Shown here: positions 141 through 42,875 of the stretch, one piece after another | Layout: every line of letters begins with the position of its first letter | How positions within the stretch are numbered: position 1 is the first letter of the stretch | Assembly (NCBI GenBank): GCA_963712115.1 | Contig: CAVQGX010000045.1 | Span: 1 to 42,875, forward strand | Length of the DNA: 42,875 bases | From: an uncultured delta proteobacterium | GTDB lineage: Bacteria; Desulfobacterota; Syntrophobacteria; BM002 | Reading direction: 5' to 3' | The notes under the pieces: model-generated | Seen by the model: the letters and a program-made list of their open reading frames with translations, nothing else | The model's database searches: none | Told to the model about the DNA's origin: nothing | Made by a program: the position numbers and the translations under genes

Positions 141-319
141 GATTGTAGATTTTAGATTGCAGATTGGAGATTTGAGATAGGAGATGTGGGATGGGGATGT
201 GTCAACGATTCGCAGAGCGCATAGCGAAAAGGCATGGAGGATGGGCCCGGGGCATAGGGAGGCAATTTCGAATTTCGAATTGCAAAATGCGAAATGATAA
301 ATCCGCAATGCGCAATCCA
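141..319. repeat. Inverted degenerate heptamer arrays (GATTNNA x5 ... AAT-periodic 7-mers x8) with inner GCGCATA-like units
   Basis: GATTGTA GATTTTA GATTGCA GATTGGA GATTTGA at 141-175; AATTTCG AATTTCG AATTGCA AAATGCG AAATGAT AAATCCG CAATGCG CAATCCA at 264-319, abutting the radical SAM stop. Confidence 0.75.
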
Positions 320-1471
320 TTAATAATCTCGTCCGAGTAAATGCAGATTGCCAATATGGACTCTTTTCAAGCCGGCGTTTTCGGCAATCTCCTTGCAGCG
401 AAGGGCATGGGTGCGGGAGGTGGTGGGAAGATCTTGCAGATGAAAATGAGGATAGAAGGCCAAGAGACTGTAAGGAATTTCCGGGTTAAGTTCGGCTATA
501 TAGCTGGCGATTGCTGCGACTTCCACCTCGTCCACATAGCCCGGCACCAGGAGGGTGCTGGCAATGAGAAAAGGTGGCTCCGGCCTTCGCTTGACCAATT
601 TGCTCAACACTTTGAAATTCTCTAGGGTTTTTCGATTGGTCACTCCGCAGAGACTATAGTGAACGCTTTCATTCCAGGCCTTGAGATCGAACTTAATCAG
701 TCCTCCCGTGGCAAATGACAGATCTGCCATTTTGCCAAGGAAAGGCTCCTCCACCGCCCCGTTGGTCTCCCAGCACACCCTAAGGACACGTCCAGAGGTT
801 CGCTGCACGGCAAGTTTGGACGCTTTGATGGCATGGAGAATCTGCGGCGTGGGATCTCCCCCAAAATAGCAAATGCAGGTGGTATTGTGTTTCACTGCCC
901 CAGCCAACTGTTTGGCCGTTATTAACTGAGTCGAGCGAGTTCGATCTTTGAATTGATGATTTTGACAATACAGACAGTTGAAGGAGCAAGCGTGATAAAA
1001 GACGGCTAGATTGTTATGACCATGCTCGGGTCCGTCGGATAAAGCATACTTGGGATAGCCACACCCGGTGCCGCCGGCACAGACAAAACTGCCGACGCAG
1101 TTGCAGGGTAGGGGGTCATAATAATAAGAAAGATTCCCCTCGTGGGGGCGACCTCCGATTATCTTGCCGTCCACAACTCGACGGAGTCCACAAAAGCCAA
1201 CGGTGCCCTCAGGGATTTTACATTGGTGCAGACAAAGGTGGCAGGCAACCCCGGACTCAGCTCGGGGAGGATCTTCCGGCAGACCGTAGGGTTTACGGGT
1301 ACGAGAGTGAACCTTCTTGATCTCAGGCCAGACTTCCTCAAAGTGTGCCCGGATGCATTCTGCACAGAAGCCTATTACGTTTGAGATGATCGGACTGCTC
1401 TCACCGCACTTTTGGCAAGAGCCCATGCGAAGGTGGTCGTATTCAAAAAATCCTTTTCCACTGCCGGTCAT
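320..1471 (-). CDS. Radical SAM protein (PflA/AmmeMemoRadiSam-like) with extra N-terminal Cys clusters
   Basis: CSFNCLYC CxxxCxxC motif, YFGGDP, WETNG, FDLKA motifs; extra CQKC, CAEC, CHLCLHQC. Confidence 0.85.
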   Translation of the reverse strand: MTGSGKGFFEYDHLRMGSCQKCGESSPIISNVIGFCAECIRAHFEEVWPEIKKVHSRTRKPYGLPEDPPRAESGVACHLCLHQCKIPEGTVGFCGLRRVVDGKIIGGRPHEGNLSYYYDPLPCNCVGSFVCAGGTGCGYPKYALSDGPEHGHNNLAVFYHACSFNCLYCQNHQFKDRTRSTQLITAKQLAGAVKHNTTCICYFGGDPTPQILHAIKASKLAVQRTSGRVLRVCWETNGAVEEPFLGKMADLSFATGGLIKFDLKAWNESVHYSLCGVTNRKTLENFKVLSKLVKRRPEPPFLIASTLLVPGYVDEVEVAAIASYIAELNPEIPYSLLAFYPHFHLQDLPTTSRTHALRCKEIAENAGLKRVHIGNLHLLGRDY

Positions 1472-1515
1472 GAGCCTGTCTCAGAAAAAGGTTTATATTT
1501 TGTTGGAGCGACTAA

Positions 1516-1585
1516 GGTTTCAGTGTTCAGGTTTCAGCCTTTGTTCTTCTCCTTCCTGATACCTGAAACCTGACACCCGACACCT
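1516..1585. repeat. Inverted heptamer arrays (GGTTTCA/GTGTTCA ... CCTGAMA)
   Basis: GGTTTCA GTGTTCA GGTTTCA then CCTGATA CCTGAAA CCTGACA CCCGACA; same unit family at 23596 and 32309. Confidence 0.8.
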
Positions 1586-1588
1586 TTT

Positions 1589-2095
1589 TTATAGCTGAAG
1601 CTTTTCGAAGAAAAGCTGCAAAGCAGAATCCCGGGTTTTTTCAGATATGGAAACCAGAATAACATCATCTCTATTTTTTATCTTTTGGATAAAACGATCG
1701 CCCTTTATGGCAATTGAACCAACGACCTGGTTTTCTGCAGATAGTACCCTGAGAAGGGTTTCCTTGAAAAGGCGAGAGAAACACTCCATTTTCCCAATCT
1801 CATCAATCACCACGATCTGATCGTCCGTGGAGGGGAGCATGGATGGAACTGCAATTTGGTCAAGATCCTCGATATTTACTCCATATTTACCCACCCGGTA
1901 ATTACTTTTGATATTTTGATGGGCCAATAACCCTGTTTTTCCGTCAAGTGTCTCTATAAGGAAACCCACCCGTTTACCTTTTTCTCGAAGTTCTCTGGTG
2001 AAGAATCCAGTTGCTGGTCTTTTGACCCTTTTGATCACCTTTTCGATTAGAGTGGATTTTCCAGATTGGGGCGGACCGGTAAGGAGAATGTTCAT
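1589..2095 (-). CDS. Nucleoside-triphosphatase (THEP1/NTPase_1 family)
   Basis: Walker A GPPQSGKS, GFFTRE, VGKYGV, VVIDEIGKME; start placed at MNILLTG. Confidence 0.9.
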   Translation of the reverse strand: MNILLTGPPQSGKSTLIEKVIKRVKRPATGFFTRELREKGKRVGFLIETLDGKTGLLAHQNIKSNYRVGKYGVNIEDLDQIAVPSMLPSTDDQIVVIDEIGKMECFSRLFKETLLRVLSAENQVVGSIAIKGDRFIQKIKNRDDVILVSISEKTRDSALQLFFEKLQL

Positions 2096-2273
2096 GGCTG
2101 GCACCTGAATTCTCTGATGTTGGCTTGCCTTATCTTTGCTATTAAGGCAAAAAGAAAAGGTGAAATTCAATCAGAGAGTGATTAAACTATTATAGCTGAA
2201 TGCGAAAAAATACTCGGAAAAATTGGTCATTTTACATAAAATGCGACTCTTCCGGGATTTGCTTGGATGCCAT

Positions 2274-2300
2274 AATTAAATGATATTATTATATTTAATT
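2274..2300. promoter_or_regulatory. AT-rich inverted repeat, candidate Fur/PerR-family operator
   Basis: AATTAAAT-gatattattat-ATTTAATT upstream of the rubredoxin/rubrerythrin/DVU0772 cluster. Confidence 0.35.
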
Positions 2301-2325
2301 TTATAGAAATCAGTCTGCTTTATGT

Positions 2326-2340
2326 TGGCATGAATCTTGG
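2326..2340 (+). promoter_or_regulatory. Possible sigma54 (-24/-12) promoter
   Basis: TGGCATG-aatc-TTGG has correct spacing versus TGGCACG-N4-TTGC, with a mismatch at the -12 C. Confidence 0.35.
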
Positions 2341-14856: not shown

Positions 14857-14955
14857 GATTGTAGATTTTAGATTTGAGATTTCAGATTGATCTACATTGC
14901 AGATGTAAGACGCCAGAATCTACAATCTACATTCTGCAATCCGCAATCTAAAATC
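14857..14955. repeat. Inverted heptamer arrays between convergent genes
   Basis: GATTGTA GATTTTA GATTTGA GATTTCA GATTG ... AATCTAC AATCTAC ATTCTGC AATCCGC AATCTAA; left arm starts identically to 141. Confidence 0.85.
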
Positions 14956-21748: not shown

Positions 21749-21919
21749 ACTGGACACTAAGCGCTAGATAATAGGCGCTACGAACTAGACACTAAGCACT
21801 GGACACTGAGCAGAGCTCAGAGGGAGAAGTGCGAGACGGGCGAGACGAGGAATCAATTTTATCTTTAACAATGGCATTTTTCTCCCGCCCTCTCGTCTCG
21901 CTCGACCTCCAGTCTCGCG
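21749..21919. repeat. Stacked arrays: ACTRRRC heptamers plus inverted GCGAGACG-type 8-mers
   Basis: ACTAGAC ACTAAGC ACTGGAC ACTGAGC at 21784-21811; GCGAGACG GGCGAGACG ... CTCGTCTCG..GTCTCGC. Confidence 0.65.
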
Positions 21920-22493: not shown

Positions 22494-22663
22494 CAGCGGT
22501 CAGAAATTAGAGATCGGAGGTCGGAAGTCAGAGGTCAGTGGACAGGGTTAAAGCTGATCTCTGACATCCGACTTCTGACCTCTGAGATAGACGACTTCAA
22601 AGGTTGCAAATATCTACATATTGCCTGCCAAAACCCTATGCGCTATGCTCTTTGCCCTATGCT
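22494..22663. repeat. Inverted CAGAGGT/ACCTCTG heptamer arrays plus a CCCTATG array
   Basis: CAGCGGT CAGAAAT TAGAGAT CGGAGGT CGGAAGT CAGAGGT ... CTGATCT CTGACAT CCGACTT CTGACCT; CCCTATG CGCTATG CTCTTTG CCCTATG. Confidence 0.82.
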
Positions 22664-23595: not shown

Positions 23596-23627
23596 CCTGA
23601 CACCTGAAAACCTGAAACCTGACAGCT
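23596..23627. repeat. CCTGAMA heptamer half-array
   Basis: CCTGACA CCTGAAAA CCTGAAA CCTGACA just before the rhomboid start. Confidence 0.7.
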
Positions 23628-23638
23628 AAAACCCTAAG

Positions 23639-24809: not shown

Positions 24810-24838
24810 ATCAATGTCTGAAGAAAGGGGAGGTAGAG

Positions 24839-27753: not shown

Positions 27754-27791
27754 TCTGTCTACTAGGCGAGTTAGTTGGTATGTGGCACTTT

Positions 27792-27993
27792 AAATTCGAA
27801 TGTCGAATATCTAAATTGTCCTTCGGACTCCCACCCTTCGGGCGGGTTCCCAGTTTCGAAACAAATCCGAATGTTCAAAATCCCAGATGCCAGACGACTG
27901 AATTGAGAATTTGAAAGAGTACATGAAGTTTTGGACGTTTGAATTTTGAATTTGGGATTTGTTTAGCATTTCGTGCTTGGGATTTAGGATTTG
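27792..27993. repeat. Long inverted heptamer-periodic element (AAATYCG family) with a nested 39-bp insert
   Basis: Left arm AAATTCGAATGTCGAATATCTAAAT..TCGAAACAAATCCGAAT; right arm ends GTGCTTGGGATTTAGGATTTG, identical to 30432-30452. Confidence 0.8.
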
Positions 27994-29755: not shown

Positions 29756-29768
29756 ATCTCTGAATCAA

Positions 29769-30194: not shown

Positions 30195-30272
30195 GGAGAG
30201 AATATAGCATATTCGCTCCCCCATCTCACTCGGTTATCCAATTGTACGCCTCATCTATGGCGAATTAGATGT

Positions 30273-30452
30273 AAAATTCGAATATCTAAATCCGAAATCC
30301 TAAACAAGTCCAAAATTCCAAATCCAAATGACCAAAACATCTACTATACCTTTATGCATGCGAATTGAATCGCCAGATGCGTTACCGTTTTTAATTTTGA
30401 ATTTGGAAGATTTGAATTTGTTTGGAATTTGGTGCTTGGGATTTAGGATTTG
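30273..30452. repeat. Long inverted heptamer-periodic element, second copy
   Basis: AAAATTCGAATATCTAAATCCGAAATCCTAAACAAG... / ...TTTGGAATTTGGTGCTTGGGATTTAGGATTTG; contains the EamA stop codon. Confidence 0.82.
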
Positions 30453-31396: not shown

Positions 31397-31407
31397 GGCG
31401 ATGCCCC

Positions 31408-31591
31408 CAGCCCGGATATCTCACGAATGGCCGTCGCGAGACCGTGGAGAAGGCTGTGCCACCGGGCAACCGCAGGGGGTTGGACCCGAGGCGCACTTGG
31501 AAAGTACGTTGCAGGGTCCGACACCCGAGGACGACCGGGAGGACGGTCATAACCACGGTCGCAGTAGGCCATTCGTGAAATATCCGGGCTA
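31408..31591 (+). mobile_element. MITE-like TIR element, copy 2 (184 bp)
   Basis: AGCCCGGATATCTCACGAATGGCC ... GGCCATTCGTGAAATATCCGGGCT. Confidence 0.88.
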
Positions 31592-32287
31592 ATAACTCCC
31601 ATAGGTTCGACGGATTTGCTTAAACAGGGGATTCATGTCATACATGTAGGATTGTTTCTCCAACCTGTCCAATTTATTCAACCACTTTTGCCGGTAAACT
31701 TCCTGCCCTTTTCTAAATCGTACTGAGGTTTGTTTCCAGCTGGGATGGTCCATTTGCGTCTTCAAGGCGTCCAGCTCGAAGAGGATAGGAAATAATCCCC
31801 TGAGCCTGACCTCGCTATTTTCGCTGGTATCGACATTTTCTAAATAGTTTAACTCTGCCGTGGCCCAGAATTTGGCGTGTGCTCCTTCATGTTGAACAAC
31901 GCTTTGGAAATCGCCATAAGTGAAGGCGGGGTGGAACATCTTCGGGCCAAAGGTCATTCTAGAAGGATAGCCCCGGCCAATAGCAAGGGCATGGCTAGTG
32001 GTACGATAGCTTCCATTTTGAGCCCTCACCAAAGGGTTGGTAACGGCAAAGACCTTTACTTCGCTAGAATATAGGATCTCCAGTACATAATCCGGTAGCC
32101 CCTCCCGTTGCACGTACGATTCGATGAAATTGTTGCGCAACTGCGGTTCTCTCTGAGCCTGGAAAAAAAACTCTCGGAGGTCATTGGTTTGGCCCGTGAC
32201 CTTGTCGATGCAAGGCGGTAGGAGGGCAATCATCAGAACAGTGACGAAAAGCCTATAGATTTTAATGTTCGAATGGCTACCTTGCAC
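31589..32287 (-). CDS. Hypothetical exported protein with an HExxH zinc-peptidase-like motif
   Basis: Hydrophobic N-terminus; QHEGAHAK followed by FELDAL (possible third Glu ligand). Confidence 0.6.
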   Translation of the reverse strand: MQGSHSNIKIYRLFVTVLMIALLPPCIDKVTGQTNDLREFFFQAQREPQLRNNFIESYVQREGLPDYVLEILYSSEVKVFAVTNPLVRAQNGSYRTTSHALAIGRGYPSRMTFGPKMFHPAFTYGDFQSVVQHEGAHAKFWATAELNYLENVDTSENSEVRLRGLFPILFELDALKTQMDHPSWKQTSVRFRKGQEVYRQKWLNKLDRLEKQSYMYDMNPLFKQIRRTYGSY

Positions 32288-32308
32288 TGCACAGACCTGC
32301 TGACTGTA

Positions 32309-32395
32309 GTGTTCAGGTTTCAGTGTTCAGAAAAGGAAAAATCAGGGTGCAAGTTTAGCCTCTGTGTTTCTACTCCTGAACACTGAAACCCGAAA
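32309..32395. repeat. Inverted GTGTTCA/TGAACAC heptamer arrays
   Basis: GTGTTCA GGTTTCA GTGTTCA ... CTGAACA CTGAAAC CCGAAA. Confidence 0.78.
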
Positions 32396-32423
32396 TCTTA
32401 CATCAATTTCAATCAGACCGGGG

Positions 32424-34538
32424 TTAAACCGAAGCAAACTGCAATTGGTGCAAACGGTAATAGAACTCTCTGCGTGAGAGAAGATCCTCTTGAGTGCCGT
32501 GTTCGACAATCCTTCCTTTATGTAAGACCAAAATCCGATCAGCTTGGCGTATGGTGGAAAGCCTATGGGCTATAACCAGGGTGGTTCTTCCTTGAAAAAG
32601 GCGTTGCAAGGCCTGCTGAATCAGGTACTCTGTCTCACTGTCAATGTTTGCTGTGGCCTCATCGAGAATTAGTACTTTCGGGTCATAAGCCATAGCCCGG
32701 GCGATGGCGAGGAGTTGACGCTGCCCAGTGGAAAGGGTGACGCCACCTTCCTGCACCTCCGCATCCAGTTGGCCGGGAAGGCGGGAAACCAGATCTTCCA
32801 GGTGAGCCAGGCGAGTAATTCTCTCAAGCTCTCTTGAGGATATGTGGCGATTTAAGGCGATATTTTCCCTCAACCTTCCGGCAAAGAGAAATACATCTTG
32901 CATTATCAGTCCAACCTGAGACCTGAGCCAGGACAGGTCCAGATCTCGAATATCTCTCCCATCAAGAAGAATTCTTCCCCCCTGTGGTTGGTGAAATCTT
33001 TCTAAGAGATGCATCAGAGTGGTTTTGCCGGCGCCGGTGACACCCACAATCGCAAGGGTTTCGCCACTCCGGACCTTGAAAGAGATATCTTTCAAAACCG
33101 GTTCGTCGTGGTGATAGCCAAAAGTCACCTGTTGAAACTCTATTTCACCCTTCAGCGAGTGAGGTTTGGCTTTGCCGGAAGTGTATTTCTCTTTCTCCTT
33201 GTCGTCCAGAAGAAGGAAGATGCGCTCGGCAGAAGCCATGGCGGACTGCATAATGCTGTATTTTTGTGAGACATCTCGAATGGGTCCAAAAAACATTCGC
33301 AGGTAAGAAATAAAAACCACGAGAGCGCCAAGAGTCAGACTATCAGACAAAACCTGCCTGCCCCCATACCAGAGGAGCAATGCGATGGTGGTAGTGGCCA
33401 GTAATTCAATACAGGGGAAAAAGACTGCTTGGATAGTTATTTGTCTCACGGTGGCGTTGTAGTAACTATGGTTGAGAGCTTCAAAACGACTCAAGGTCGC
33501 CCTCTCTTGGCGAAAAATTTTGATTACCCTGATGCCGGAAAGATATTCATTTAGAACAGCATTGATCTTGGCCAATTTGGCTCTAATCTCTCGGTAGGCG
33601 GAGCGAACCTGGATACCAAAAGCACGAAAAAGAACCGCTATGAGGGGAATAACGGACAGGGTGACCAGAGTGAGAGTCCAACTGAGGTTAAAGAGAATCA
33701 CTAGAATACCAAAAAGCAGTACCGCATCTTTTAAAAGGGTCATCACCACGGATCCGAACATCTCGTCCAGGTTTTGGATGTCATTGGTCAGACGGGTGAC
33801 CAGTCTTCCAACCGGATTTCGGTTGAAGAAGGAGAGAGACATTTTTTGTAGATGGCTAAAAAGCTGCATACGCAAGTCGTGCATCATGTGTTGGCCGGCA
33901 TAGACCATCAACAGATTCTGGCCAAAGGTACAAGCTGCGCTAAGGAGAAGAAGCGAAACAAAGATGAATCCCAAACGGTAGAGCCCGGAGATGTCGTGTC
34001 TGCGCAAGGCAACGATCTCAGCGGCTGAGAGTTTGGCCTGATCTCGGTAGTTAATGTAAGTAATTCCATTGGCACTGTGAAAAAGGCTGGGATGGGCCAG
34101 AACTACTTCTTTTTGGGCTGCGGTTTGGATGGAAGTGAAATAGAAACGCTGGGGGGTAATCACGCCCTTTTCTTCAAGCCATCGAAGCAGGCGAGGATCC
34201 ACCTGGGTCAAAGTTTGTCCGCTTATGAAGAATTGTCCAGGTTCCGGGCCCAAGTTTAACTTTCCACGGACCTGGTTGAGAAAGCTTGTGAGTGGTGGCT
34301 CCGCCGGGGCTTCCGGCACCATCACTTGTCGGGCAGAAGGCAAAATGTATCTGTCTATACCTACCTTGAGCAAGTAAGGTAGGGCGAGGTCGAATCCGGT
34401 TACTAACAAGATGAGCACGCAGCTCAAGCCGATAACTTTGAGGTAGGCTCGTGCATAGCCGGCCAGACGACGCCAGAGCGGCCAGTCATATGGCTTTCCT
34501 AACTTCCCTTCCTCAAAGTAGCCGTAATTACCGTGCAT
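32424..34538 (-). CDS. ABC exporter permease/ATPase, MdlB-like half with a large insert between TM1 and TM2
   Basis: GVTGAGKT, LSTGQRQ, ILDEATA, IAHRLST. Confidence 0.93.
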   Translation of the reverse strand: MHGNYGYFEEGKLGKPYDWPLWRRLAGYARAYLKVIGLSCVLILLVTGFDLALPYLLKVGIDRYILPSARQVMVPEAPAEPPLTSFLNQVRGKLNLGPEPGQFFISGQTLTQVDPRLLRWLEEKGVITPQRFYFTSIQTAAQKEVVLAHPSLFHSANGITYINYRDQAKLSAAEIVALRRHDISGLYRLGFIFVSLLLLSAACTFGQNLLMVYAGQHMMHDLRMQLFSHLQKMSLSFFNRNPVGRLVTRLTNDIQNLDEMFGSVVMTLLKDAVLLFGILVILFNLSWTLTLVTLSVIPLIAVLFRAFGIQVRSAYREIRAKLAKINAVLNEYLSGIRVIKIFRQERATLSRFEALNHSYYNATVRQITIQAVFFPCIELLATTTIALLLWYGGRQVLSDSLTLGALVVFISYLRMFFGPIRDVSQKYSIMQSAMASAERIFLLLDDKEKEKYTSGKAKPHSLKGEIEFQQVTFGYHHDEPVLKDISFKVRSGETLAIVGVTGAGKTTLMHLLERFHQPQGGRILLDGRDIRDLDLSWLRSQVGLIMQDVFLFAGRLRENIALNRHISSRELERITRLAHLEDLVSRLPGQLDAEVQEGGVTLSTGQRQLLAIARAMAYDPKVLILDEATANIDSETEYLIQQALQRLFQGRTTLVIAHRLSTIRQADRILVLHKGRIVEHGTQEDLLSRREFYYRLHQLQFASV

Positions 34539-34543
34539 GTCGA

Positions 34544-34778
34544 AAAATGCCTAAAGTGAACTAAAGTGAGCTAAAATGCCTAAAATTAACCATCGTTGCA
34601 GTCGTTCAAATCGTAAAGGCTCAAGGAGCCAGAATGGAAGAATGCTCTTTTTGTTTTTGCCTCCTGGATTCTGAATTCTAGCTCCTTAATTCTTAAATAA
34701 TTTGGTGCCTAGTGCTTAGTTCCTAGTACCTAGTTTTCATTGCTGCAGCTGTCCTCTGCCCTCCGACCTCTGCCTCCT
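34544..34778. repeat. Four different tandem-unit arrays stacked in one spacer
   Basis: AAAATGCCT/AAAGTGARCT 9-10-mers (34544-34587); AGGAGCC..ATTCTGA inverted heptamers (34624-34686); TAGTNCY (34703-34734); CTGNCCT (34749-34778). Confidence 0.75.
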
Positions 34779-36534
34779 ATCCAATCGTTGCTTCCTCGTA
34801 TAACTCTTCCTCCAATTTCTGGCGGCGGTACAAGGCAGCATAGAGCCCACTTTGCGCCATAAGCTGATCGTGATTTCCCTGCTCCTGCAAGCGCCCCTGG
34901 TCAAAGACAAAAACCACGTCAGCAGCGCGCATGACCTCTAAGCGGTGCGAAGCGATAATGGTAGTTCTGTTCTGGAAATAGCGGTTGAGATTGCTGAGAA
35001 TGGCCAGTTCTGTTTCAAAATCCACTGAAGAGAAGCAGTCGTCGAGAATTAGCAAAGGCGCAGACAACAACAGCGCCCTGGCAAGAGTGAGGCGCTGCTT
35101 TTGACCACCGGACAAAGTAACGCCACGTTCTCCCAGGAGGGTATCGAACTGCTGGGGCAGGGCGAGGATTTCCTTGAGTAGATGTGCCGCCTCAGCAGCT
35201 TTTGTAATCTCTTCCATGCTGGCGCTCGGATTCCCGAAACAAATGTTTGCTTTAACCGTGTCTGCAAAGATAAAAGGATCCTGGGATACCACCGCGATGG
35301 CTCGCCGAAGCTCCTCCAGAGGGTAGCGATGTATTTCCTCTCCATCAAGGAAAAGCTTGCCGTAAGGTATATCGTAGAGGCGGGGTAATAACTGGCAAAG
35401 AGTGCTTTTCCCAGCACCTGTGCGGCCGACTATCCCCACCACCTGTCCGGGTTTGATTCTCAGATGGACATTCTCCAGAGCCGGCAATTTGAAACCGGGA
35501 TATGTAAAGCTAATCCCCCTACCTTCAATATCGCCATGGGTAAGGGGTTGATTGACTACTTCTGACTCATCATCGATTTCGGCAGGGGTGTCCAGAATTG
35601 TTTTAATTCTGCCTAAAGAGGCCGATCCCCGTTGAAATAAATTTATCATCCACCCAAGGGCCATCATGGGCCAGGCGAGGATGAGCAGATAGCTGTTAAA
35701 GGCAACGAAGTCACCGGTAGAAATTGTGTTTAGAATGGTAAGCTTGCCGCCGACCACAAGGACCAAGGCCATGCTCAGGTTTGTAAATAAAAGACTCATG
35801 GGGGAAAAGAGGCCGCCAATTTTAACCATACCGAGATTTTCTGCGATATATTCCCTCCCGGTTTGATCAAAGCGTCTGGCTTCCGCCTCTTCCTGGGTAT
35901 AGGCCTTTATTGCGCGTATGCCGGCGAGATTCTCTCTGGCGCGCTCTGTCAGGCGGGAGAAGGAGGCCTGCACTTGTCGGAAGCGCTCGTAGAAAGTCTT
36001 ACTTATGGTACGGGCGAAAAGGGCGATGAAAGGCATGGGCAACAGGGCAATAAGGGTAAGAGCGGGATTAATGTATAGCATGAAGCCAATCGCAGCAGTT
36101 CCCAGAACCAGGGTATCTGTAAGAGCTACCAGCCCCATACCGGTTGCCAGCTGCACCGCTTGGATGTCATTGGTGGCGTGAGCCATAAGATCCCCGGTGC
36201 TAGCCCTGTCAAAGTAAGAGAAAGGAAGAGTTTGTAAGTGGGCAAAAAGACGATTCCGCAGAGCCTCTTCAACTTGACGGGAATGGCCAAAAAGGCACCG
36301 CCTCCACACGAAGCGGAAGACTACGATGCCCAAGGCCAAGGCCAGAACCATCCCGGCATAGGCTAGAAGTCTGGAGCTAGTGGCCTGGTAGCGAGTGAGG
36401 TCGTCCACAGCCAGCTTGATGACCCTTGGAATCAGGAGCTGCAAAAAATCCACCAGTAGCAGCGAGCCGACTCCCATGACAATTATGCTAAGATTCTGGC
36501 GAAAATATGGAAGAAGAATACGATAGTGGGTCAT
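34777..36534 (-). CDS. ABC exporter permease/ATPase, MdlA-like half
   Basis: TGDLMAHATND, GRTGAGKS, LSGGQKQR, degenerate ILDDCFS. Confidence 0.93.
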   Translation of the reverse strand: MTHYRILLPYFRQNLSIIVMGVGSLLLVDFLQLLIPRVIKLAVDDLTRYQATSSRLLAYAGMVLALALGIVVFRFVWRRCLFGHSRQVEEALRNRLFAHLQTLPFSYFDRASTGDLMAHATNDIQAVQLATGMGLVALTDTLVLGTAAIGFMLYINPALTLIALLPMPFIALFARTISKTFYERFRQVQASFSRLTERARENLAGIRAIKAYTQEEAEARRFDQTGREYIAENLGMVKIGGLFSPMSLLFTNLSMALVLVVGGKLTILNTISTGDFVAFNSYLLILAWPMMALGWMINLFQRGSASLGRIKTILDTPAEIDDESEVVNQPLTHGDIEGRGISFTYPGFKLPALENVHLRIKPGQVVGIVGRTGAGKSTLCQLLPRLYDIPYGKLFLDGEEIHRYPLEELRRAIAVVSQDPFIFADTVKANICFGNPSASMEEITKAAEAAHLLKEILALPQQFDTLLGERGVTLSGGQKQRLTLARALLLSAPLLILDDCFSSVDFETELAILSNLNRYFQNRTTIIASHRLEVMRAADVVFVFDQGRLQEQGNHDQLMAQSGLYAALYRRQKLEEELYEEATIG

Positions 36535-36642
36535 GGTTGGATATTATCATAAAGAGGCTGGAGAGTTTAGGTCTGCTTGTGGCGCATTGAAGAGCGAGAC
36601 GTCTCGCCGTGTAGTTCCTAGAGCTGACCGCTGTCCCCTGGA

Positions 36643-37860
36643 TTACAGCATACTCTTTTCGCTTTCTTCAATGGCTTTGTCTACTTTTGCTTGTAGCTCC
36701 GGGGGCAACCCTTCGATTTGCACATTCAAAAAACCCCTAACAATTGTGGCGGTGGCTTCTTCCTCGGAGAGCCCGCGGGCCATCAAGTACTCAATTTCCT
36801 CTTCAGCGATTTTACCCACCGCCGCCTCGTGCGACATTTCCGCCCCGGACCTGTGAGCTTCCAGCTCCGGTATGGCGTGGATGATGCCTTCATCAGCAAG
36901 GATAAGCCCGTGGCATTCAAGGTGAGCCTTGACATTCGGCTTCAAGCCTATTAAATGACCCCTCGCCTTGATCAATCCTCCGGTTGTAATAGCCCTAGAG
37001 ACTATCTCAGCCCGGGTGTTGGAGGCTTCCAACACCACCCGAGCGCCTGTGTCAAGCTCACACCCTGGAGGAGACAGCAGAATTGAGTGAAAGCGAGCCA
37101 CCGCCCCAGGCCCTATTAAGCGAGTGGTGGGGTACATTTGCAGCGAGCGCACGGGCCTTAAGCTCACATAATTGGAGAGAAACAAGCCATCCTCTTCAAC
37201 CACGATACCCGATCGGGGTCTTACCATTACCTCTTCAGCCCAATCGTGAATCATGGTGAAAGTGAGTTTCGCTCCTCGTTTAACGTAAAATTCAGAGATA
37301 CCTATATGAATACCTGTTTGTAGACTAGGGGCTGTGGCGCAACCGGTGATTATATTGAGTTCAGAACCTTCTTCGGCGATTATGACGTTATGAACATTCT
37401 GGGCCGTATTGTCATGTTTCATATAGAGGCAGGCTTGAATGGGAGTGGTGACACGTTGTCCCTCGAGAGCCCGGATAAAGTAGCCGTTTTGAAAATGTAG
37501 TTCAGCCTGTGCTGTGTATTTGTCAGCATCCACTGGGACGGCCTGCCAGTAGAATTCTTCCAGCCAAGGATGCTCCTCCATGGCCTGAGCCATGGGGAGT
37601 ACTTCTAACCCCGGCTGCTTGACCGCGCAATGGACAATTCGATTGTCTGCCTGCAAGAAAGTCCCGGCCCTGTTCTGCTCATCGAGATCAACGCCCGATT
37701 GGATGATCTTCGCTCGGTCTTCTTGAGTTAGTCCCTCAAGGTCTAGGGGATCAGTTTTATCGTCCGAAAGTAGCTGGTACTTAAGCAGGTCAATATCTGT
37801 GCCAAAGGCAGCCTTCTTATCTTTAGCCTGTGCTGCTTGGGTTTTTCTCACCTTTGACAT
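36643..37860 (-). CDS. sufB: SufB/SufD-family Fe-S scaffold (SmsB-type)
   Basis: IITGCAT, GISEFYV, QMYP, AHLECHGL, IPELE, SHEAAVGKI, YLMARG; AGGAG RBS before ATG 37860. Confidence 0.9.
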   Translation of the reverse strand: MSKVRKTQAAQAKDKKAAFGTDIDLLKYQLLSDDKTDPLDLEGLTQEDRAKIIQSGVDLDEQNRAGTFLQADNRIVHCAVKQPGLEVLPMAQAMEEHPWLEEFYWQAVPVDADKYTAQAELHFQNGYFIRALEGQRVTTPIQACLYMKHDNTAQNVHNVIIAEEGSELNIITGCATAPSLQTGIHIGISEFYVKRGAKLTFTMIHDWAEEVMVRPRSGIVVEEDGLFLSNYVSLRPVRSLQMYPTTRLIGPGAVARFHSILLSPPGCELDTGARVVLEASNTRAEIVSRAITTGGLIKARGHLIGLKPNVKAHLECHGLILADEGIIHAIPELEAHRSGAEMSHEAAVGKIAEEEIEYLMARGLSEEEATATIVRGFLNVQIEGLPPELQAKVDKAIEESEKSML

Positions 37861-38570
37861 TTGAGACACTCCTGGTATCCGTGTCGCTGGATTCCTTTGA
37901 AAAGCTCGCGAGGATTACCACGGCAGTGGATACGGCCGTCCAAGAGCACGTAGCCAGCGTCTGCTTCTATATAGTTGAGAATGAAACCCAAGTGGGAGAT
38001 GACCAGACCTGATTTGGCCCGTTTACGCCAGAGATACTTTTCCAGCAGCTTATTTATAGCTTTTCCCAGGATTTGAAGATTCTCCAAGTCAACTCCAGAT
38101 TCAGGCTCGTCCAGCATCACCAACTCAGGGTCCTGGAGGAGTAGCTGTAGTAGCTCAGATTTTTTCATCTCACCGCCGGAAAAGCCAACATTTAGTTCTC
38201 GTTCTAAGAGACCCGAAAAATTAAACTTATCTGCCAGGTCATCACATGATACCGCATTGATGTTGCAGACGTTGAAAACGTCACGGGTCTTGACCCCCCG
38301 AATACTAGGTGGACGTTGGAATGCCATACCGATTCCCATTTTTGCCCGTTCATCAATGGGTAATTTGGTGATATCCACACCTTTAAAAGAAATTCGGCCC
38401 TGTCGCACCTTGTACCTGCGGAAACCCATAATGGTCATGAGGAGGGAAGATTTGCCCGAACCGTTCTTGCCAAAAAGGATATGGGTTTCGCCACTAGGGA
38501 TGGTCAGGTTGACGCCTTTTAAAACCTCTTTACCGTTGACATCCACCCAAAGGTCATTTATTTCCAACAT
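37848..38570 (-). CDS. sufC: SufC-family ABC ATPase (SmsC-type) with C-terminal CxxC
   Basis: GKNGSGKS, GFSGGE, LDEPESGVD, GYQECLKC. Confidence 0.92.
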   Translation of the reverse strand: MLEINDLWVDVNGKEVLKGVNLTIPSGETHILFGKNGSGKSSLLMTIMGFRRYKVRQGRISFKGVDITKLPIDERAKMGIGMAFQRPPSIRGVKTRDVFNVCNINAVSCDDLADKFNFSGLLERELNVGFSGGEMKKSELLQLLLQDPELVMLDEPESGVDLENLQILGKAINKLLEKYLWRKRAKSGLVISHLGFILNYIEADAGYVLLDGRIHCRGNPRELFKGIQRHGYQECLKCQR

Positions 38571-38587
38571 GTGATAATCTCCCTCTA

Positions 38588-38715
38588 GGAAATTGAGGAA
38601 TTAGGGATTGAGGAATTGATAATGATTAAGAGAACCTTTGGATTTGCCATGCCCTAATCCCTTAATCCCTAAATTCCTGAATCCTAAATTATCCCTATTT
38701 CGAAATTCGAAATTG
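38588..38715. repeat. Inverted 8-mer arrays (GGAATTGA / AATCCCT) plus ATTTCGA units
   Basis: GGAAATTG AGGAATTA GGGATTG AGGAATTG ... CCCTAAT CCCTTAAT CCCTAAAT TCCTGAAT. Confidence 0.78.
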
Positions 38716-38751
38716 CTCGGGCCGCTTCTAGCGGGCTAAAAATGCGTGCTT

Positions 38752-38780
38752 ACCATAACCGATAGCGTATGAAAATGCAA
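38752..38780 (-). promoter_or_regulatory. Possible sigma70 promoter for sufCB
   Basis: TTGCAT-17 nt-TATGGT on the minus strand. Confidence 0.4.
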
Positions 38781-38810
38781 TAAATCCCATGGCGCAGAGC
38801 GGTTGCTCAG

Positions 38811-38894
38811 ATTTCGCATTTATCAATTTTCATTTTCCATTCTCAAAGCAAAAGTACCAAAGCTAATCAATAAATGATAAATGATAAATGAGAA
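38811..38894. repeat. Inverted ATTTTCN / AAATGAT heptamer arrays
   Basis: ATTTCGC ATTTTATC AATTTTC ATTTTCC ATTCTCA ... AAATGAT AAATGAT AAATGAG. Confidence 0.72.
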
Positions 38895-39011
38895 ACGTGC
38901 GGTGGGCACAGCCCACTGAACAAAGCTTGCTCTACCCAAGCAAAAGTGTTACGGTAACGATCTTCACAGGTTTTGCTTGCACTATGTAGATCCAGGAGCA
39001 TTGAAACAGTT

Positions 39012-39200
39012 ATGGGTGCTGGCTCTATCTTTTTGATGAGGATGGGTTTAGGCATTCTCTTTGCCTTTATTTTAGTGAAGATATTTCACCTCGGCGGCGG
39101 TATCTTGACAATGGCAGGTTTTGCAGTCTTTTTTGTAGGGCTTGCATATCTACTCGCCCATTTGCGGGAAAGAAGACAGAGTCAAGAGCGACTGAGGTGA
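39012..39200 (+). CDS. Small 2-TM membrane protein (62 aa)
   Basis: AGGAG upstream; two hydrophobic helices and a basic tail. Confidence 0.65.
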   Translation: MGAGSIFLMRMGLGILFAFILVKIFHLGGGILTMAGFAVFFVGLAYLLAHLRERRQSQERLR

Positions 39201-39366
39201 TTGTTGACAGTTGCAGAAATGTTTGGTCATATTTATTATTAACACTGCTGCCATGTTTTTGGTGAAATATTTATCAGTGTTTCCAGCTTTAGGGTTTCGT
39301 TTTGATTTTTGTTTCGAAGTCAGCCGTTATCCCATTGTTGATACAAATCTAATATGAGGTGATCAA

Positions 39367-40416
39367 ATGAGTCCAATGGACTGGAAAGGGCCACCGTCGC
39401 GAGGCCCCGGGGGCATAAAAGATTTCGAAGAAATTCTGCAAAAGATCCGCGAAAAATTTCGAGGCAGGTTTCGCTTGGGCGGCTCCTTGTGGCTCTTCAT
39501 TCTGGCGGCGCTCATTGTTGCCGCTGGCTATGCCAGTGTCTATACCGTGGCCCCAGAAGAGACTGGAGTGATTCAGCGTTTCGGTCGCTATGTGCGGTTA
39601 ACCGGTCCGGGCCTGCATTTCAAGCTGCCTTTCGGTATTGAGACGGTGGGCAAAGTCAAGACAGGTCGAAATTTCCAGATGGAGTTCGGCTACAGGACGG
39701 TAGAAGCTGGGGTTCGTTCACGCTTTACTGAAAGGGGTTTTAAAGAAGAGTCACTCATGCTGAGTGGTGACCTCAACGTGGTCGATCTTCAGTGGACCGT
39801 GCAATACAAGATCGGGGATCCAAAGGATTTTCTCTTTCAGGTGAAGGATGTGGATAGTGCCATTCGAGATATGTCCGAATCGGTCATGCGGAGGGTGGTT
39901 GGAAACCGGCTTTTCGACTTCGTCCTTACAGTAGGACGTGCCGAGATCGCCGACAGAGTTAAAATGGAAATGCAAAAGGTTCTGGACTCCTATCGCACCG
40001 GCATCCAGGTGGTCAACGTCAAGATGCAAAATGTGACTCCGCCAGAGCCGGTGGAGGCTGCCTTCAATGAAGTGAACGAAGCTGAACAGGAAAGAGAGTC
40101 AAAGATCAACCAGGCTCAGGGCGCCTATAATCGGGAGATCCCTAAAGCTAAAGGTAGTGCTTTGCAGACCATATCACAGGCCGAAGGCTACGCTTTGGAA
40201 AGGGTGAATAAGGCGGAGGGCGAGGCGAAACGTTTTCTCGACGTGCTTAAAGAATATCGCCAGGCAAAGGATGTTACCAAAAGACGTCTTTATTTAGAGA
40301 GCATGAACCAACTGCTCGACAAGGTAGATGAAATCTACGTGATTGACGCAGACCAGAAGGGACTAGTTCCCCTGCTTGATCTCCAGAAAGCGCGAGGAAA
40401 GACAAATGAAAAGTAG
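39367..40416 (+). CDS. hflK: FtsH modulator HflK
   Basis: SPFH domain, GVIQRFG..TGPGLHFK, MLSGDLN, PPEPVEAAF, AEGEAKRF, RRLYLE. Confidence 0.95.
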   Translation: MSPMDWKGPPSRGPGGIKDFEEILQKIREKFRGRFRLGGSLWLFILAALIVAAGYASVYTVAPEETGVIQRFGRYVRLTGPGLHFKLPFGIETVGKVKTGRNFQMEFGYRTVEAGVRSRFTERGFKEESLMLSGDLNVVDLQWTVQYKIGDPKDFLFQVKDVDSAIRDMSESVMRRVVGNRLFDFVLTVGRAEIADRVKMEMQKVLDSYRTGIQVVNVKMQNVTPPEPVEAAFNEVNEAEQERESKINQAQGAYNREIPKAKGSALQTISQAEGYALERVNKAEGEAKRFLDVLKEYRQAKDVTKRRLYLESMNQLLDKVDEIYVIDADQKGLVPLLDLQKARGKTNEK

Positions 40417-41362
40417 AGCAATGCAGGTACTGCTTGCCCTGATTGTAGTCGCCGCTATAGTTTCCACGGGCGCATTTTATGTGGTAAATGAAGGCGAACA
40501 GGTGGTAATCACCCAGTTCGGCAGGCCCGTGGGAGCTGCTGTCAAGGATGCCGGTCTTAACTTCAAAATACCCTTCATTCAAGCGGTGAACCGGTTTGAG
40601 AAGCGTCTTCTTAACTGGGACGGTAGCCCCAACCAGATTCCTACCAAGGACAAGAAGCTCATCTGGGTGGACACGACTGCTCGCTGGCGTATCAGTGATC
40701 CGCTACTGTATCTGACCCGGGTGACCACCATTACCACCGCACTTTCGCGGCTGGATGGTATTATCGATTCTGTGGTCCGGGACGCTGTTTCAGAAAACGA
40801 TTTAGTGGAACTTATACGCAGTGAGGGCTGGGCGGGTGAGGTGGGTGCGCAGGTAAGCGATGCTGGCTACGCTCAGAAGGAAATGGAGGAAGTGAGTCGT
40901 CCTCTGAAAGTGGGCCGTGAAAAGATCACCAGGGCAATGCTGCTGTCTGCTTCGAAACTTACTCCCGAATTCGGCATTGAACTGGTGGATGTGCGGATCA
41001 AGCGGATCAATTACGTGGATAGCGTTTTGAAGAAGGTTTTTGAAAGAATGATCTCCGAGCGTAAACGAATCGCTGCCCAGTATCGCTCAGAGGGTGAAGG
41101 TGAGGCGGCGAGAATCAACGGGGAGATGCAAAAGGAGCTGAAACGAATCTCCTCGGAAGCCTTTCGCACAGCACAGGAAATTCGAGGGAAAGCTGATGCC
41201 GAGGCCACAAAAATCTATGGCAGCGCCTATAACCAGGATCCGGGATTCTATTCCTTTTCCAAGACCCTAGAACTCTACCGGGAGCAGGATTACAACAAAA
41301 CGAGGATGATATTGACCACAGATAGCGATTTTTACAAATATCTGAAGGAAATTCCTCGTTAG
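40406..41362 (+). CDS. hflC: FtsH modulator HflC
   Basis: VITQFG, GLNFKIPFIQ, TKDKK, FERMISER, RSEGEGEA, IRGKADA. Confidence 0.95.
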   Translation: MKSRAMQVLLALIVVAAIVSTGAFYVVNEGEQVVITQFGRPVGAAVKDAGLNFKIPFIQAVNRFEKRLLNWDGSPNQIPTKDKKLIWVDTTARWRISDPLLYLTRVTTITTALSRLDGIIDSVVRDAVSENDLVELIRSEGWAGEVGAQVSDAGYAQKEMEEVSRPLKVGREKITRAMLLSASKLTPEFGIELVDVRIKRINYVDSVLKKVFERMISERKRIAAQYRSEGEGEAARINGEMQKELKRISSEAFRTAQEIRGKADAEATKIYGSAYNQDPGFYSFSKTLELYREQDYNKTRMILTTDSDFYKYLKEIPR

Positions 41363-41465
41363 GAGAGAAAGAAAGAAAAAAAATGATAAAATACGAATTT
41401 TTCGTATTGTGCTTTAATGCAATTTGTGTATAGTGGGGAAAGGTCTGCGCGGTTCGTACCGTGTT

Positions 41466-41510
41466 GCCCCTAACGGTGTTTGATACAAACATCGCTGGGG
41501 GCTTTTTTTT
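41466..41510 (+). terminator. Intrinsic terminator downstream of hflC (or of a small RNA)
   Basis: GCCCCTAACGGTGTTTG-ata-CAAACATCGCTGGGGGC followed by T8. Confidence 0.75.
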
Positions 41511-41522
41511 GGCAGGTGTTTC

Positions 41523-41705
41523 TAGCCCGGATATTTCATAAATGGCCTACTGCGACCGCGGATATGGTCGTCCTTCCTGGCGTCCTCGGGTCACGCCCCC
41601 TGCGACGTACTGTCAAGTACGTCTCGGGTTCGAGTCCCTGCGGTTGCCAGGTTGCAAGCCCATCTTCACGATCTCGTGACGGCAATTCATGAAATATCCG
41701 GGCTA
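41523..41705 (-). mobile_element. MITE-like TIR element, copy 3 (183 bp, opposite orientation)
   Basis: TAGCCCGGATATTTCATAAAT ... ATTCATGAAATATCCGGGCTA; reverse complement of the interior matches copies 1 and 2 (CCCGAGGACGCCAGGAAGGACG). Confidence 0.9.
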
Positions 41706-42680
41706 AAGCAACTCGGAATACAAATCTTCGATACCCTCTATCTCCTCCTGCAGATAAGACCTAATCTTCTTGGTGATTCTAACTTGTATCTGCCGCACGC
41801 GCTCGCGGCTGATTCCGTAAACGTCCCCAATTTCTTGCAGAGTAAGCGGTTCTTCGGCTATTAGTCTGTTGTCGAAAATAAATCTCTCTTTCTTCGGCAG
41901 AGTGGTTCTGAACTCGGCAAGTTTTTCTTTGAGGATTTCTCTTCTTTCGAAGTCTGCGAGTTGTTCGTCTGCGCCGATCTGATCGGAAGGGATGAAAGAT
42001 TGGTGGTCGCTCTCCGAGCCTTCTTTGATAGGAGCATCAAGAGACACCTCCCAGCTACCCAGCCGCTGATCCATTTCGATTACTTCAGATTCTTTTACAT
42101 CCAACCGCTCAGCCAGCAACTTAGGTCTCGGCTCATATCCCATGGCCAGCAAGTTTTCTTTTTCTTTACGAAGATTGAAAAAAAGCTTGCGCTGGGCCTG
42201 GGTGGTACCGATCTTGACAAGTTTCCAATTGTCCATGATGAATTTGATGATGTAAGCCTTGATCCAGAAAGAGGCATAGTAGGAGAGTTTAAAACCGCGG
42301 TATGGGTCGAATTTTTTTACTGCCTGCATCAATCCAATATTACCTTCCTGAATCAGATCCATTAGATTACGCATCCAGTGGCGCTGAAAGCTCAGGGCAA
42401 TTTTCACGACCAATCTAAGATTCGAGGTGATGAGCCGGTAGGCTGCTTCCATATCGCCCTTTTCTTTATAACGAATGGCCAGCCTCTGTTCTTCTTCTCG
42501 GCTCAGAAGGGGATACCTCTTTATCTCCATGAGATAGTGTTTGAGGGGATCATAAGTGACGAGGGAGTCTGAAGAGTAACTCTTCAGGGGCGCAATTTCG
42601 CTCTCGTCGAAATCGAAGTCGAAATCTTGATTGTGATTTTTCTCCTCTTCCTTTGCTTTTTTTGCTCTTTTCTCTGCCAT
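41703..42680 (-). CDS. rpoH: RNA polymerase sigma-32 factor RpoH
   Basis: NLRLVVKIA, DLIQEGNIGL, YASFWIKA, RpoH box QRKLFFNLR, SRERVRQI. Confidence 0.92.
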   Translation of the reverse strand: MAEKRAKKAKEEEKNHNQDFDFDFDESEIAPLKSYSSDSLVTYDPLKHYLMEIKRYPLLSREEEQRLAIRYKEKGDMEAAYRLITSNLRLVVKIALSFQRHWMRNLMDLIQEGNIGLMQAVKKFDPYRGFKLSYYASFWIKAYIIKFIMDNWKLVKIGTTQAQRKLFFNLRKEKENLLAMGYEPRPKLLAERLDVKESEVIEMDQRLGSWEVSLDAPIKEGSESDHQSFIPSDQIGADEQLADFERREILKEKLAEFRTTLPKKERFIFDNRLIAEEPLTLQEIGDVYGISRERVRQIQVRITKKIRSYLQEEIEGIEDLYSELL

Positions 42681-42748
42681 CTTGCAGTTTTCCCTTTTGC
42701 TTAACTGTCCTGCGGAGTGTGGATATAAGCAACCACAGAGAAACAATC

Positions 42749-42777
42749 AAAATACCCTAGGTATGTTGTCATGTCAA
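42749..42777 (-). promoter_or_regulatory. sigma70 promoter for rpoH
   Basis: TTGACA-17 nt-TATTTT on the minus strand. Confidence 0.6.
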
Positions 42778-42835
42778 GCTGACCTTGATTGCATGACCAT
42801 TTAACCTTGGTAAATGATACTTGTTGCTGTCTTTT

Positions 42836-42875
42836 AAATGATAATTGAGAAATGCGAAATGGGAAATGAAAAATG
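42836..42875. repeat. AAATGNN heptamer array running off the window
   Basis: AAATGAT AATTGAG AAATGCG AAATGGG AAATGAA AATG. Confidence 0.75.

Follow-up and report, generated by a model that had tools for sequence, protein, structure and literature searches.

The intergenic spacers of a 42,875-nucleotide (nt) contig from an uncultured delta proteobacterium (CAVQGX010000045.1 of assembly GCA_963712115.1; Desulfobacterota, Syntrophobacteria) contain imperfect tandem arrays of short words, mostly of seven nucleotides, and many of these arrays form the two arms of a hairpin. The question raised by this locus is where such arrays come from. Bacterial heptanucleotide repeats have been a puzzle for decades, without an accepted origin or function, and a preprint on the subject still speaks of an interacting partner yet to be found (10.1101/2022.06.06.494920). 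We propose that the arrays are probably gene-less and solo-arm derivatives of selfish, hairpin-ended cassettes located in intergenic spacers and resembling the intervening sequences (IVS) of rRNA genes. Within a single genome, the same word families are found as intact and as truncated cassettes, as amplified hairpins without a gene and as solo arms.

The window, i.e., the whole stretch analysed here, is the complete contig C45 of a 4.9-Mb assembly of 70 contigs (G000; 48.9% G+C; completeness 94.4%, contamination 6%); positions on other contigs of this assembly are given as contig:position. Gene boundaries are open reading frame (ORF) proxies throughout, not gene calls. Tandem arrays were detected with Tandem Repeats Finder (TRF), and a third-order Markov simulation of the same contigs served as the chance control. 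Public sequencing runs were examined as assembled contigs, a type of data that contains no transcript ends.

Results

Abundance, position and pairing of word arrays

TRF reported 38 rows in the window, 18 of them with period 7, where the control predicts about 0.7 for a sequence of this size. The single period-7 row within a long ORF is that at 7629; periods of 8, 10, 14 and 21 are seen at 38591, 38655, 34544, 21784 and 141. Genome-wide, 2115 rows of period 7 were found compared with 79 in the control, in addition to 455 rows with a 14-nt and 94 with a 21-nt period. Merging left 2059 arrays, 1693 of them in intergenic DNA, while the intergenic share of the genome is only about 20% by the ORF proxy. 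The arrays, which have a median of 3.9 copies and represent 274 distinct canonical consensus units, are thus real and far above chance, and they are present at every locus where the preliminary description of the window had placed them. They also have the hallmarks of heptanucleotide repeats, namely tandem 7-nt units in several families at many intergenic loci and in excess over chance.

Many arrays are paired. Eight of ten window spacers tested contain arm pairs with arms of 17-37 nt that are 70-89% complementary, often in several registers 7 nt apart, and folding of eight window elements gives z-scores between -2.1 and -8. The predicted layout of a left arm and a reverse-complement right arm was therefore recovered in the majority of spacers tested, but it is not universal: no hairpin fold was obtained for the arrays at 23590, 34540, 34690 and 21745. 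Where neighbours are separated by less than 50 nt, words recur in inverted orientation in 142 of 598 cases and in direct orientation in 9 (random pairs, about 3% each). In a more sensitive search, 530 of 2025 arrays proved to have an inverted partner no further than 250 nt away, as against 132 in a control and 81 in direct orientation. The majority of arrays are thus either solo arms or degenerate beyond scoring.

Array density amounts to about 2.0 per kb in co-directional and convergent spacers and 1.0 in divergent ones, and arrays lie close to stop codons (median distance 48 nt). This distribution, along with the good folding of many arrays, would suit elements that serve the host, either as binding sites of a global regulator or nucleoid protein or as hairpins at mRNA ends (terminators, stabilizers or REP-like elements) kept for expression. 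There are precedents: paired heptanucleotide sites on opposite strands in Geobacter metallireducens, with the similar word MTYCTGA, are annotated as putative global-regulator sites (PMC2700814), and heptamer repeats of Nostoc are described as affecting the expression of recO and recF (10.1101/2022.06.06.494920). A host function is nevertheless unlikely in view of the hundreds of different words (the 274 consensus units), the lack of a sense-strand bias, and the fact that the content of orthologous spacers is not kept: relatives contain other word families or nothing at these sites, and content differs even in a 98%-identical haplotype. The stems at 22494, 32308 and 14857 moreover lack a following T-run. 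Intrinsic terminators were rejected as an explanation of these three stems (22494-22584, 32308-32394 and 14857-14955) by sequence inspection alone; a T-run does follow position 1586, on the strand opposite to the flanking genes.

Cassettes with cargo genes

Complete cassettes occur elsewhere in the genome. It encodes 14 matches to TIGR02436 at 13 loci and five matches to TIGR04256, none of them on the window contig, which confirms that the window is devoid of such genes. The corresponding Pfam families are 23S_rRNA_IVP (PF05635), comprising four-helix-bundle proteins, with relatives of solved structure (2RLD and 2GSC, five chains in each deposition), and PDDEXK_3 (PF13366), comprising GxxExxY proteins. 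As judged by eye, inverted word arrays bracket all 13 four-helix-bundle loci and at least three of the five GxxExxY loci. An unbiased inverted-flank score of at least 16 was obtained for 8 of 14 cargo ORFs compared with 13 of 1514 other ORFs under 200 amino acids. In five relatives, 16 of 19 four-helix-bundle loci reach this score; the three low-scoring loci comprise one masked by Ns, one truncated at the end of a contig and one weak case. In 15 of 18 cases, the gene upstream of the cargo gene has the same orientation. No transposase gene is present between the arms, and the gene-carrying relatives of the arrays encode only PF05635 or PF13366 proteins. The link between arrays and these two gene families, which the preliminary description had put forward, is thereby substantiated, all the more as window spacers match the arms of cassettes (see below).

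Each cargo lineage has its own arm word. Proteins beginning with MAKFRFQDL are associated with GCATRGR, those beginning with MSKIKFRFQDL with AGCGCAT, M(K/Q/R)LEDLQ with GTCATTA, MIKTFKDL with GCAGCAG, MNP...MK with GATTGCR, MSK(A/I)(Q/R)NSKQYD with AAATCCG, and MRINSAKEL with GAGGTCA. The arm word goes with the four-helix-bundle subfamily across species, a pairing that fits co-inheritance of gene and arms; specific recognition would fit too. Under the latter assumption the arrays would be address sequences read by the cargo proteins, with each lineage of pentameric Avd-like four-helix-bundle or small PD-(D/E)XK-like proteins recognising its own 7-nt word, roughly one word per subunit, and the cassette then being inserted into or beside existing hairpins. 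We regard this model as possible though unlikely. If true, it would define an unrecognised class of mobile elements without a conventional transposase and provide a general origin of bacterial heptamer repeats (STRR).

A box with the sequence RGGGGCRC located 3-12 nt before the ATG is common in both unrelated cargo families (e.g., at C18:8227, C52:9521 and C31:168175). The GGGGCRC box was considered as a mark of cassettes and rejected: it was seen by eye in about 10 of 18 cassettes, yet it occurs in 139 places, including those before three response-regulator genes. It is probably a variant of the ribosome-binding site.

The four-helix-bundle cargo is related to the Avd protein of diversity-generating retroelements, with scores below the cut-offs (PF22296 bAvd, 38.3 vs 40 bits; DivGenRetAVD, 32 vs 80). 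This relationship is the point in favour of repeats being added from a template by a reverse transcriptase or an activity like that of telomerase, as had been suggested for the window arrays. That origin is exceedingly improbable, given that the 94.4%-complete genome has no RVT_1 match, that no template-like locus was seen, and that the units are degenerate with a copy-specific but heritable order. Recent changes consist of whole-unit slippage and block replacement.

Window elements as relatives of cassettes

Five of the 12 window spacers match flanks of cassettes in the same genome at E ≤2e-5 (BLAST), i.e., spacer 21722 matches C30:122789, spacer 22454 matches C30:124490, spacers 27754 and 30225 match C30:121568, and spacer 34539 matches two cassettes on C42. 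Specifically, the gene-less element at 21824..21918, with arms of CGAGACG words and a fold z-score of only -1.6, matches both arms of the four-helix-bundle cassette C30:122789 (E 1.8e-5 and 5e-5). A gene-less AAATYCG-word element at 27790..27990 (arms 27859-27882 and 27941-27964) matches both arms of the four-helix-bundle cassette C30:121568 with E 5e-11. Its counterpart in opposite orientation at 30273..30450, seen by TRF and as an arm pair, matches the arms of the same cassette with E 1.8e-17; in this AAATCCG type, homology extends across the arm and takes in the initial ~25 bases of the ORF. The solo array at 34544..34586, which is made of 10-nt units AAAATGCCTA and has no fold, matches the arms of the two four-helix-bundle cassettes on C42 with E 1.5e-10.

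The most informative alignment concerns the hairpin at 22494..22600 (TRF, arm pairs; z -8.0), which has CAGAGGT-word arms, the loop GGGTTAAAGCTGATC and the non-repeat tail GAGATAGACGACTTCAA. Its alignment with the four-helix-bundle cassette C30:124460-124834 takes in both arms as well as the 3' tail, which is unique. Of 66 hairpin positions across loop, right arm and tail, 51 are identical, and there is a 38-base internal gap. These arm matches, together with the filled, truncated and gene-less alleles at orthologous sites described below, uphold the earlier proposal that the arrays are scars or empty sites of a small mobile cassette.

The hairpins of the window also belong to dispersed families. 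Four elements other than the 22494 type have 46-59 homologous loci each in the genome, at 80-96% identity. The 22494 hairpin (~85 nt) is present in 31 copies, 30 of which are distinct, and its copies share the order of units, the loop AGGG(G/T)TAAAGCTGATC and the non-repeat 3' tail GTGATGGACGACTTCAACG. By eye, most of them also share their neighbours, a GCAGCAGG array to the left and a AACGATTT array to the right; blocks larger than one hairpin therefore recur. Such linear homology contradicts the earlier view that conservation is periodic rather than linear. Likewise, the verdict that the arrays fit neither microsatellites nor miniature inverted-repeat transposable elements (MITEs) was too strong, as units do slip, and the gene-less hairpins behave as MITE-like derivatives with linear homology among many copies.

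Filled, decayed and nested sites

The lexA - imuB-like - dnaE2-like operon at C30:121529-124834 (locus L102; 121.5-125 kb) carries a four-helix-bundle cassette in each of its three spacers, all with different arm words, and was compared with that of three relatives. The lexA-imuB spacer contains a full cassette with AGCGCAT arms in one species; in another, these arms enclose no more of the gene than its last ~130 nt. In a third species relic AGCGCAT units surround other solo arrays, and in G000 they surround a complete cassette with CGAGACG arms. In the imuB-dnaE2 spacer, a GAGGTCA-arm cassette is found in two species, an AGCGCAT-arm cassette in the third and none in the fourth. Upstream of lexA, G000 has a full AAATCCG cassette where a relative has a gene-less pair of AAATCCG arms. 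The imuB-like frame runs into the left arm of the third cassette, which supplies its stop codon. A cassette can thus lose most of its gene yet keep its arms, and the arms of an older element can enclose a newer one. The latter conclusion rests on examples (the lexA-imuB site and two haplotype breaks), since a nesting statistic on TRF arrays yielded one pair of pairs only.

The cassette within relic arms of another word is also what one would expect if the hairpins came first, as an independent class of self-propagating repeats, and the four-helix-bundle or GxxExxY genes inserted into their loops or were captured there. The ratio of about 2000 arrays to 18 cargo loci, the 31 hairpin copies with one common loop, and cargo counts that do not track array density (see Discussion) point in the same direction. 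On the other hand, the arm word co-varies with the four-helix-bundle subfamily (MAKFRFQDL with GCATRGR, M(K/Q/R)LEDLQ with GTCATTA, MNP..MK with GATTGCR), arms overlap the ORF start, and the truncated gene within intact arms at one orthologous site indicates decay from full to empty. This order of events is therefore distinctly unlikely, and we favour the descent of the gene-less arrays from cassettes.

Turnover of the spacers

The assembly contains about 220 kb of near-identical duplicate contig stretches (94-99% identity). They most likely represent two strains that were binned together, which is consistent with the contamination of 6%, and are usable as natural allele pairs. The pairs include C43:1-13741 with window 29249-42875, as well as C37/C68, C43/C70, C30/C65, C34/C35, C50/C57 and others.

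The C43 stretch is 98.2% identical to its window counterpart, with 1.1% background mismatches. Within it, spacer 30229-30447 is wholly replaced by other word families at C43:980-1327 (220 vs 347 nt). At 32288-32423 the hairpin has diverged by 15%, the changes on one arm being matched on the other. Relative to C43, the window has gained one 8-nt unit at 38654 and lost one 7-nt unit at 38699. Over the ~220 kb of haplotype pairs with at least 94-95% identity, 19 indels are at least 6 nt long; at least nine of these add or remove one or two whole units in word arrays (by eye), with lengths of 7, 8, 9 or 14 nt. Of the 16 alignment breaks, 12 are places where word-array blocks were replaced or inserted, and the other four are ordinary MITE or REP-like insertions. 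Word arrays thus gain and lose whole units by slippage, and whole spacers are replaced between near-identical haplotypes. Judging by these haplotypes, turnover is very fast and confined to spacers.

In related species the orthologous spacers contain other word families, have other lengths (18-405 nt) or lack an array. In two public runs of different studies, contigs link 27751 directly to 28027 of the window, with letters between that are not given; the element at 27790..27990 is therefore absent or replaced in these runs, and the joint itself may be a replacement. In relatives, the spacer orthologous to this element has other content or is a mere 18 nt long. The arrays are thus not fixed across relatives: presence/absence variation, the lack of which would have spoken against the cassette reading, is evident in the C43 haplotype, the orthologous spacers and the alignment breaks. 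In loci L015, L018, L008 and L017 of relatives the spacers orthologous to window 23544-23638 and 30225-30442 contain a ~200-nt repeat (GTCATACCGGACACGGCGAAG...CGGAATGACGG) that is unrelated to word arrays.

Whole-unit gains and losses are the commonest small change, and heptanucleotide repeats are reported to be the most abundant class of long simple sequence repeats (LSSR) across many prokaryotes (Mrazek 2007, as cited in PMC4679880). Plain heptanucleotide repeats born by slippage in place, with neither mobility nor a link to genes, would account for both. They would not account for unit order, loop and non-repeat tail being shared by at least 30 loci, for inverted pairing far above direct pairing, or for the strong enrichment of cargo genes between arms, which makes this origin very unlikely. 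As the sole explanation in-place slippage is contradicted; it remains the mechanism of unit-number change.

Other elements and genes of the window

The remaining elements were located with TRF unless stated otherwise. At the left end, a G-rich array of about nine units (130..201; TRF rows 130, 141 and 183), in which GATTNNA drifts to GATGTGG, has a weak partner at 264..316 (AATTTCG / CGAAATG / AATCCGC; TRF rows 264 and 276). No arm pair was detected between the two at the thresholds of the arm-pair search; region 125-320 folds with z -2.1 on the plus and -2.6 on the minus strand, and the word order of the first array recurs in the spacers of loci L001 and L018 of relatives. The adjacent window bases 1-75 look like a truncated minus-strand tRNA gene, of which the contig end leaves the 3' part; neither ARAGORN nor Rfam has a hit there.

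There are three further hairpins with arms of words. That at 1514..1586 (TRF rows 1515 and 1555) has CCTGAMA-word arms which are 79-82% complementary in three registers, folds with z -3.7 on the minus strand and has 46 homologous genomic loci. The hairpin at 14857..14955, with GATTNNA / AATCTNC arms that are 81-89% complementary (z -3.7), lies between convergent genes. The third, at 32308..32394, has GTGTTCAG / CTGAACAC arms (TRF, arm pairs; z -7 to -7.7), and its comparison with haplotype C43 also shows a 13-nt deletion. Further downstream, a hairpin of 8-nt words (GGAATTGA / TAATCCCT) is followed by a TTCGAAA array at 38587..38714 (TRF, arm pairs; z -4.1), and a hairpin of AAATGNN words with 88% complementary arms is present at 38811..38895 (TRF row 38870). 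Contigs of public runs derived from RNA libraries cover 32235-33335 and 21088-21768; this coverage is no evidence of processing.

Solo arrays are found at five more sites. The array ACTAGACACTAAGC at 21749..21812 (TRF row 21784; period 14, ACTRRRC words) forms no hairpin (fold z -1.3 and -0.1). A CCCTATG array at 22634..22662 touches the start of ORF 22638-23543; its word is the right-arm word of the four-helix-bundle cassettes C59:7301 and C14:38471. Directly upstream of a rhomboid gene, a CCTGAAA array without fold (23596..23633) has other unit numbers in locus L011, is interrupted in L013 and is missing in L009, and metagenome contigs show one-base deletions at 23607/23609. At 34705..34776 (TRF row 34705; no fold) a GTGCCTA array is followed by a right-arm fragment of the CAGAGGT family, bases 34748-34776 of which match the arms of C30:124490 with E 0.001. 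Finally, the AAATGNN array at 42836..42875 ends the contig; in haplotype C43 the array stops where the window stops, with no partner arm after it. Word arrays break assemblies, as in this case, and they create spurious ORFs and false gene starts.

The genes of the window are ordinary housekeeping genes of an anaerobe and encode radical SAM proteins, rubrerythrins, a molybdopterin oxidoreductase set, an aconitase-like protein, Suf proteins, ABC exporters and a sigma factor. The nearest public relatives of one of them belong to metagenome-assembled genomes of uncultured Desulfobacterota or of the Syntrophobacterales type.

A true MITE with 20-nt terminal inverted repeats (AGCCCGGATATTTCATGAAT) is present in three window copies (24557-24808, 31409-31590 and 41524-41704; six matches vs none expected). 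The copy at 41524-41704 is inverted in haplotype C43, contigs of three public runs skip 31398/31404-31589/31599, and the 24.5-kb copy has a depth ~200-fold above its surroundings. The small ORFs 24484-24810 and 31393-31602 are probably MITE artefacts. Elsewhere in the genome, C20:238078-238593 encodes a 171-amino-acid protein resembling Y1 transposases (IS200-like, PF01797) with a GC-rich palindrome GGGGCGGGGTTTATCCCCGCCC upstream, and the two look like a pair of a REP-associated tyrosine transposase (RAYT) and its repetitive extragenic palindrome (REP). The RAYT-like gene was rejected as a source of word arrays; what flanks it is a GC-rich REP of the ordinary kind and no array of words. Word arrays look quite different from both the MITE and this REP.

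Discussion

The cassettes and their gene-less relatives can be united in one model. A complete cassette has a left arm made of tandem words of 7-10 nt, a G-rich box for ribosome binding, one small gene and a right arm of reverse-complement words. The gene encodes either a 23S_rRNA_IVP/Avd-like four-helix-bundle protein or a GxxExxY PD-(D/E)XK-like protein, and the site is usually just downstream of a co-oriented host gene. The window contains only gene-less forms, namely pure hairpins that multiplied in a MITE-like manner, and solo arms. Because the published IVS of Coxiella does so, we infer that arms and host operon are transcribed together and that the arms fold into long imperfect stems, which RNase III would then cut as in rRNA intervening sequences. 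The lower density in divergent spacers, the proximity to stop codons and the co-orientation of cargo with the upstream gene would fit this idea. Stems built of words may tolerate slippage of units because pairing is possible in several registers. Spread could be driven by the cargo proteins or by a host function.

Several observations weigh against the descent of the arrays from such cassettes. No mobility enzyme was identified for the word cassettes in G000. No target-site duplication or clean empty site was found for a word hairpin in the haplotype and ortholog comparisons, which yielded replacements and absences, nor a clean excision joint in the public-run contigs; the recent events look like replacements. 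The window contains no coding relics of either cargo family (best tblastn E 0.02, within unrelated genes), and no gene-bearing representative of the CCTGAMA or ACTAGGC words was seen among the cassettes examined. Roughly three quarters of the arrays are without a detectable partner within 250 nt. In ten relatives, cargo counts do not track local array density: four-helix-bundle genes number 1, 9, 4, 1 and 11 in the array-rich and 0, 2, 2, 0 and 8 in the array-poor genomes, and GxxExxY genes 1, 5, 1, 0 and 1 and 0, 0, 0, 2 and 4, respectively. This is a weak test, as density was taken from one ~22-kb locus per genome.

The arms themselves add two further points. Complementarity of an arm to its own partner is better than to arms of the same family elsewhere in only 27 of 121 cases (94 not), so that neither arm copying nor a locus-specific compensated stem receives support. 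Likewise, the sense strand has no advantage in RNA stability relative to host transcription (54 vs 51 of 112 stems), and there is therefore no direct sign of selection on an RNA stem. Finally, the 23S rRNA gene of this genome (C2:49082-52088) is without a four-helix-bundle ORF, and no TIGR02436 match lies on contig C2; over the first part of its alignment, the gene shows no S23p-type IVS and is expanded by 30 nt near model position 583.

The cassette model would tie heptamer repeats to a selfish element resembling rRNA intervening sequences, and the closest known system is indeed the S23p-type IVS. The IVS of Coxiella burnetii 23S rRNA contains an S23p ORF, tandem GACAGAT heptamers in strain-variable number and a 28-bp terminal stem, and it is cleaved by RNase III (PMC4990558). 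Both kinds of element are small, have terminal inverted repeats that give a long stem and, in complete cassettes (13 loci in G000, none in the window), a PF05635 four-helix-bundle ORF. In the Coxiella case as described, tandem heptamers in the 5' part, variation of unit number and decay of the ORF while the RNA element persists add to the likeness (PMC4990558). By contrast, S23p IVS reside in rRNA helices, whereas the cassettes and window elements described here lie in spacers between protein-coding genes, the latter not being inserted in a 23S or 16S rRNA helix. They also occur in hundreds of mostly gene-less copies with many words, some nested and some with a PD-(D/E)XK-like gene. RNase III cleavage is documented for the Coxiella IVS (PMC4990558), and the cassettes are known from sequence.

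The heptanucleotide repeats of cyanobacteria, reportedly described in 1990, go by the name of STRR. Together with LSSR, the TAACTGA repeats of Beggiatoaceae (PMC4679880) and the Nostoc repeats, for which a preprint lists both orientations, TTTTGAA and TTCAAAA (10.1101/2022.06.06.494920), they resemble the word arrays in being intergenic tandem 7-nt units of several families per genome near gene starts and ends. As described in these two sources, STRR-type repeats are mainly direct repeats of one word, as opposed to the inverted arm pairs, hairpin families and four-helix-bundle genes found here. In the related lineage of G. metallireducens, class 3 sites consist of five tandem heptanucleotides MTYCTGA on opposite strands at variable distance in intergenic regions, and MTYCTGA is one base from the CCTGAMA family of the window. 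These sites were interpreted as protein-binding sites, and cargo genes, turnover and hairpin families are not part of that description (PMC2700814).

MITEs and REP elements, including bacterial interspersed mosaic elements (BIME), are likewise multi-copy, non-coding, palindromic and intergenic, and vary in presence between strains. A MITE-like origin of word hairpins by internal deletion of gene-carrying relatives is plausible. Unlike in MITEs, no transposase-bearing parent or target-site duplication was seen, and the arms are tandem words in variable number rather than fixed terminal repeats. Diversity-generating retroelements, in turn, have a reverse transcriptase gene beside an Avd-like gene, a combination not seen here, where a genome of 94.4% completeness has no RVT_1 match. 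In the searchable full-text literature (i.e., outside subscription journals and database family descriptions), no link was found between heptamer hairpins dispersed over intergenic spacers and cassettes of the PF05635 or PF13366 type outside rRNA, the only connection between heptamers and S23p being the Coxiella rRNA IVS. Taken together, the cassette interpretation is largely right: the word arrays are best seen as kin to IVS-like cassettes and to STRR-like repeats, and what sets them apart is their abundance, their modular build and the speed of their turnover.

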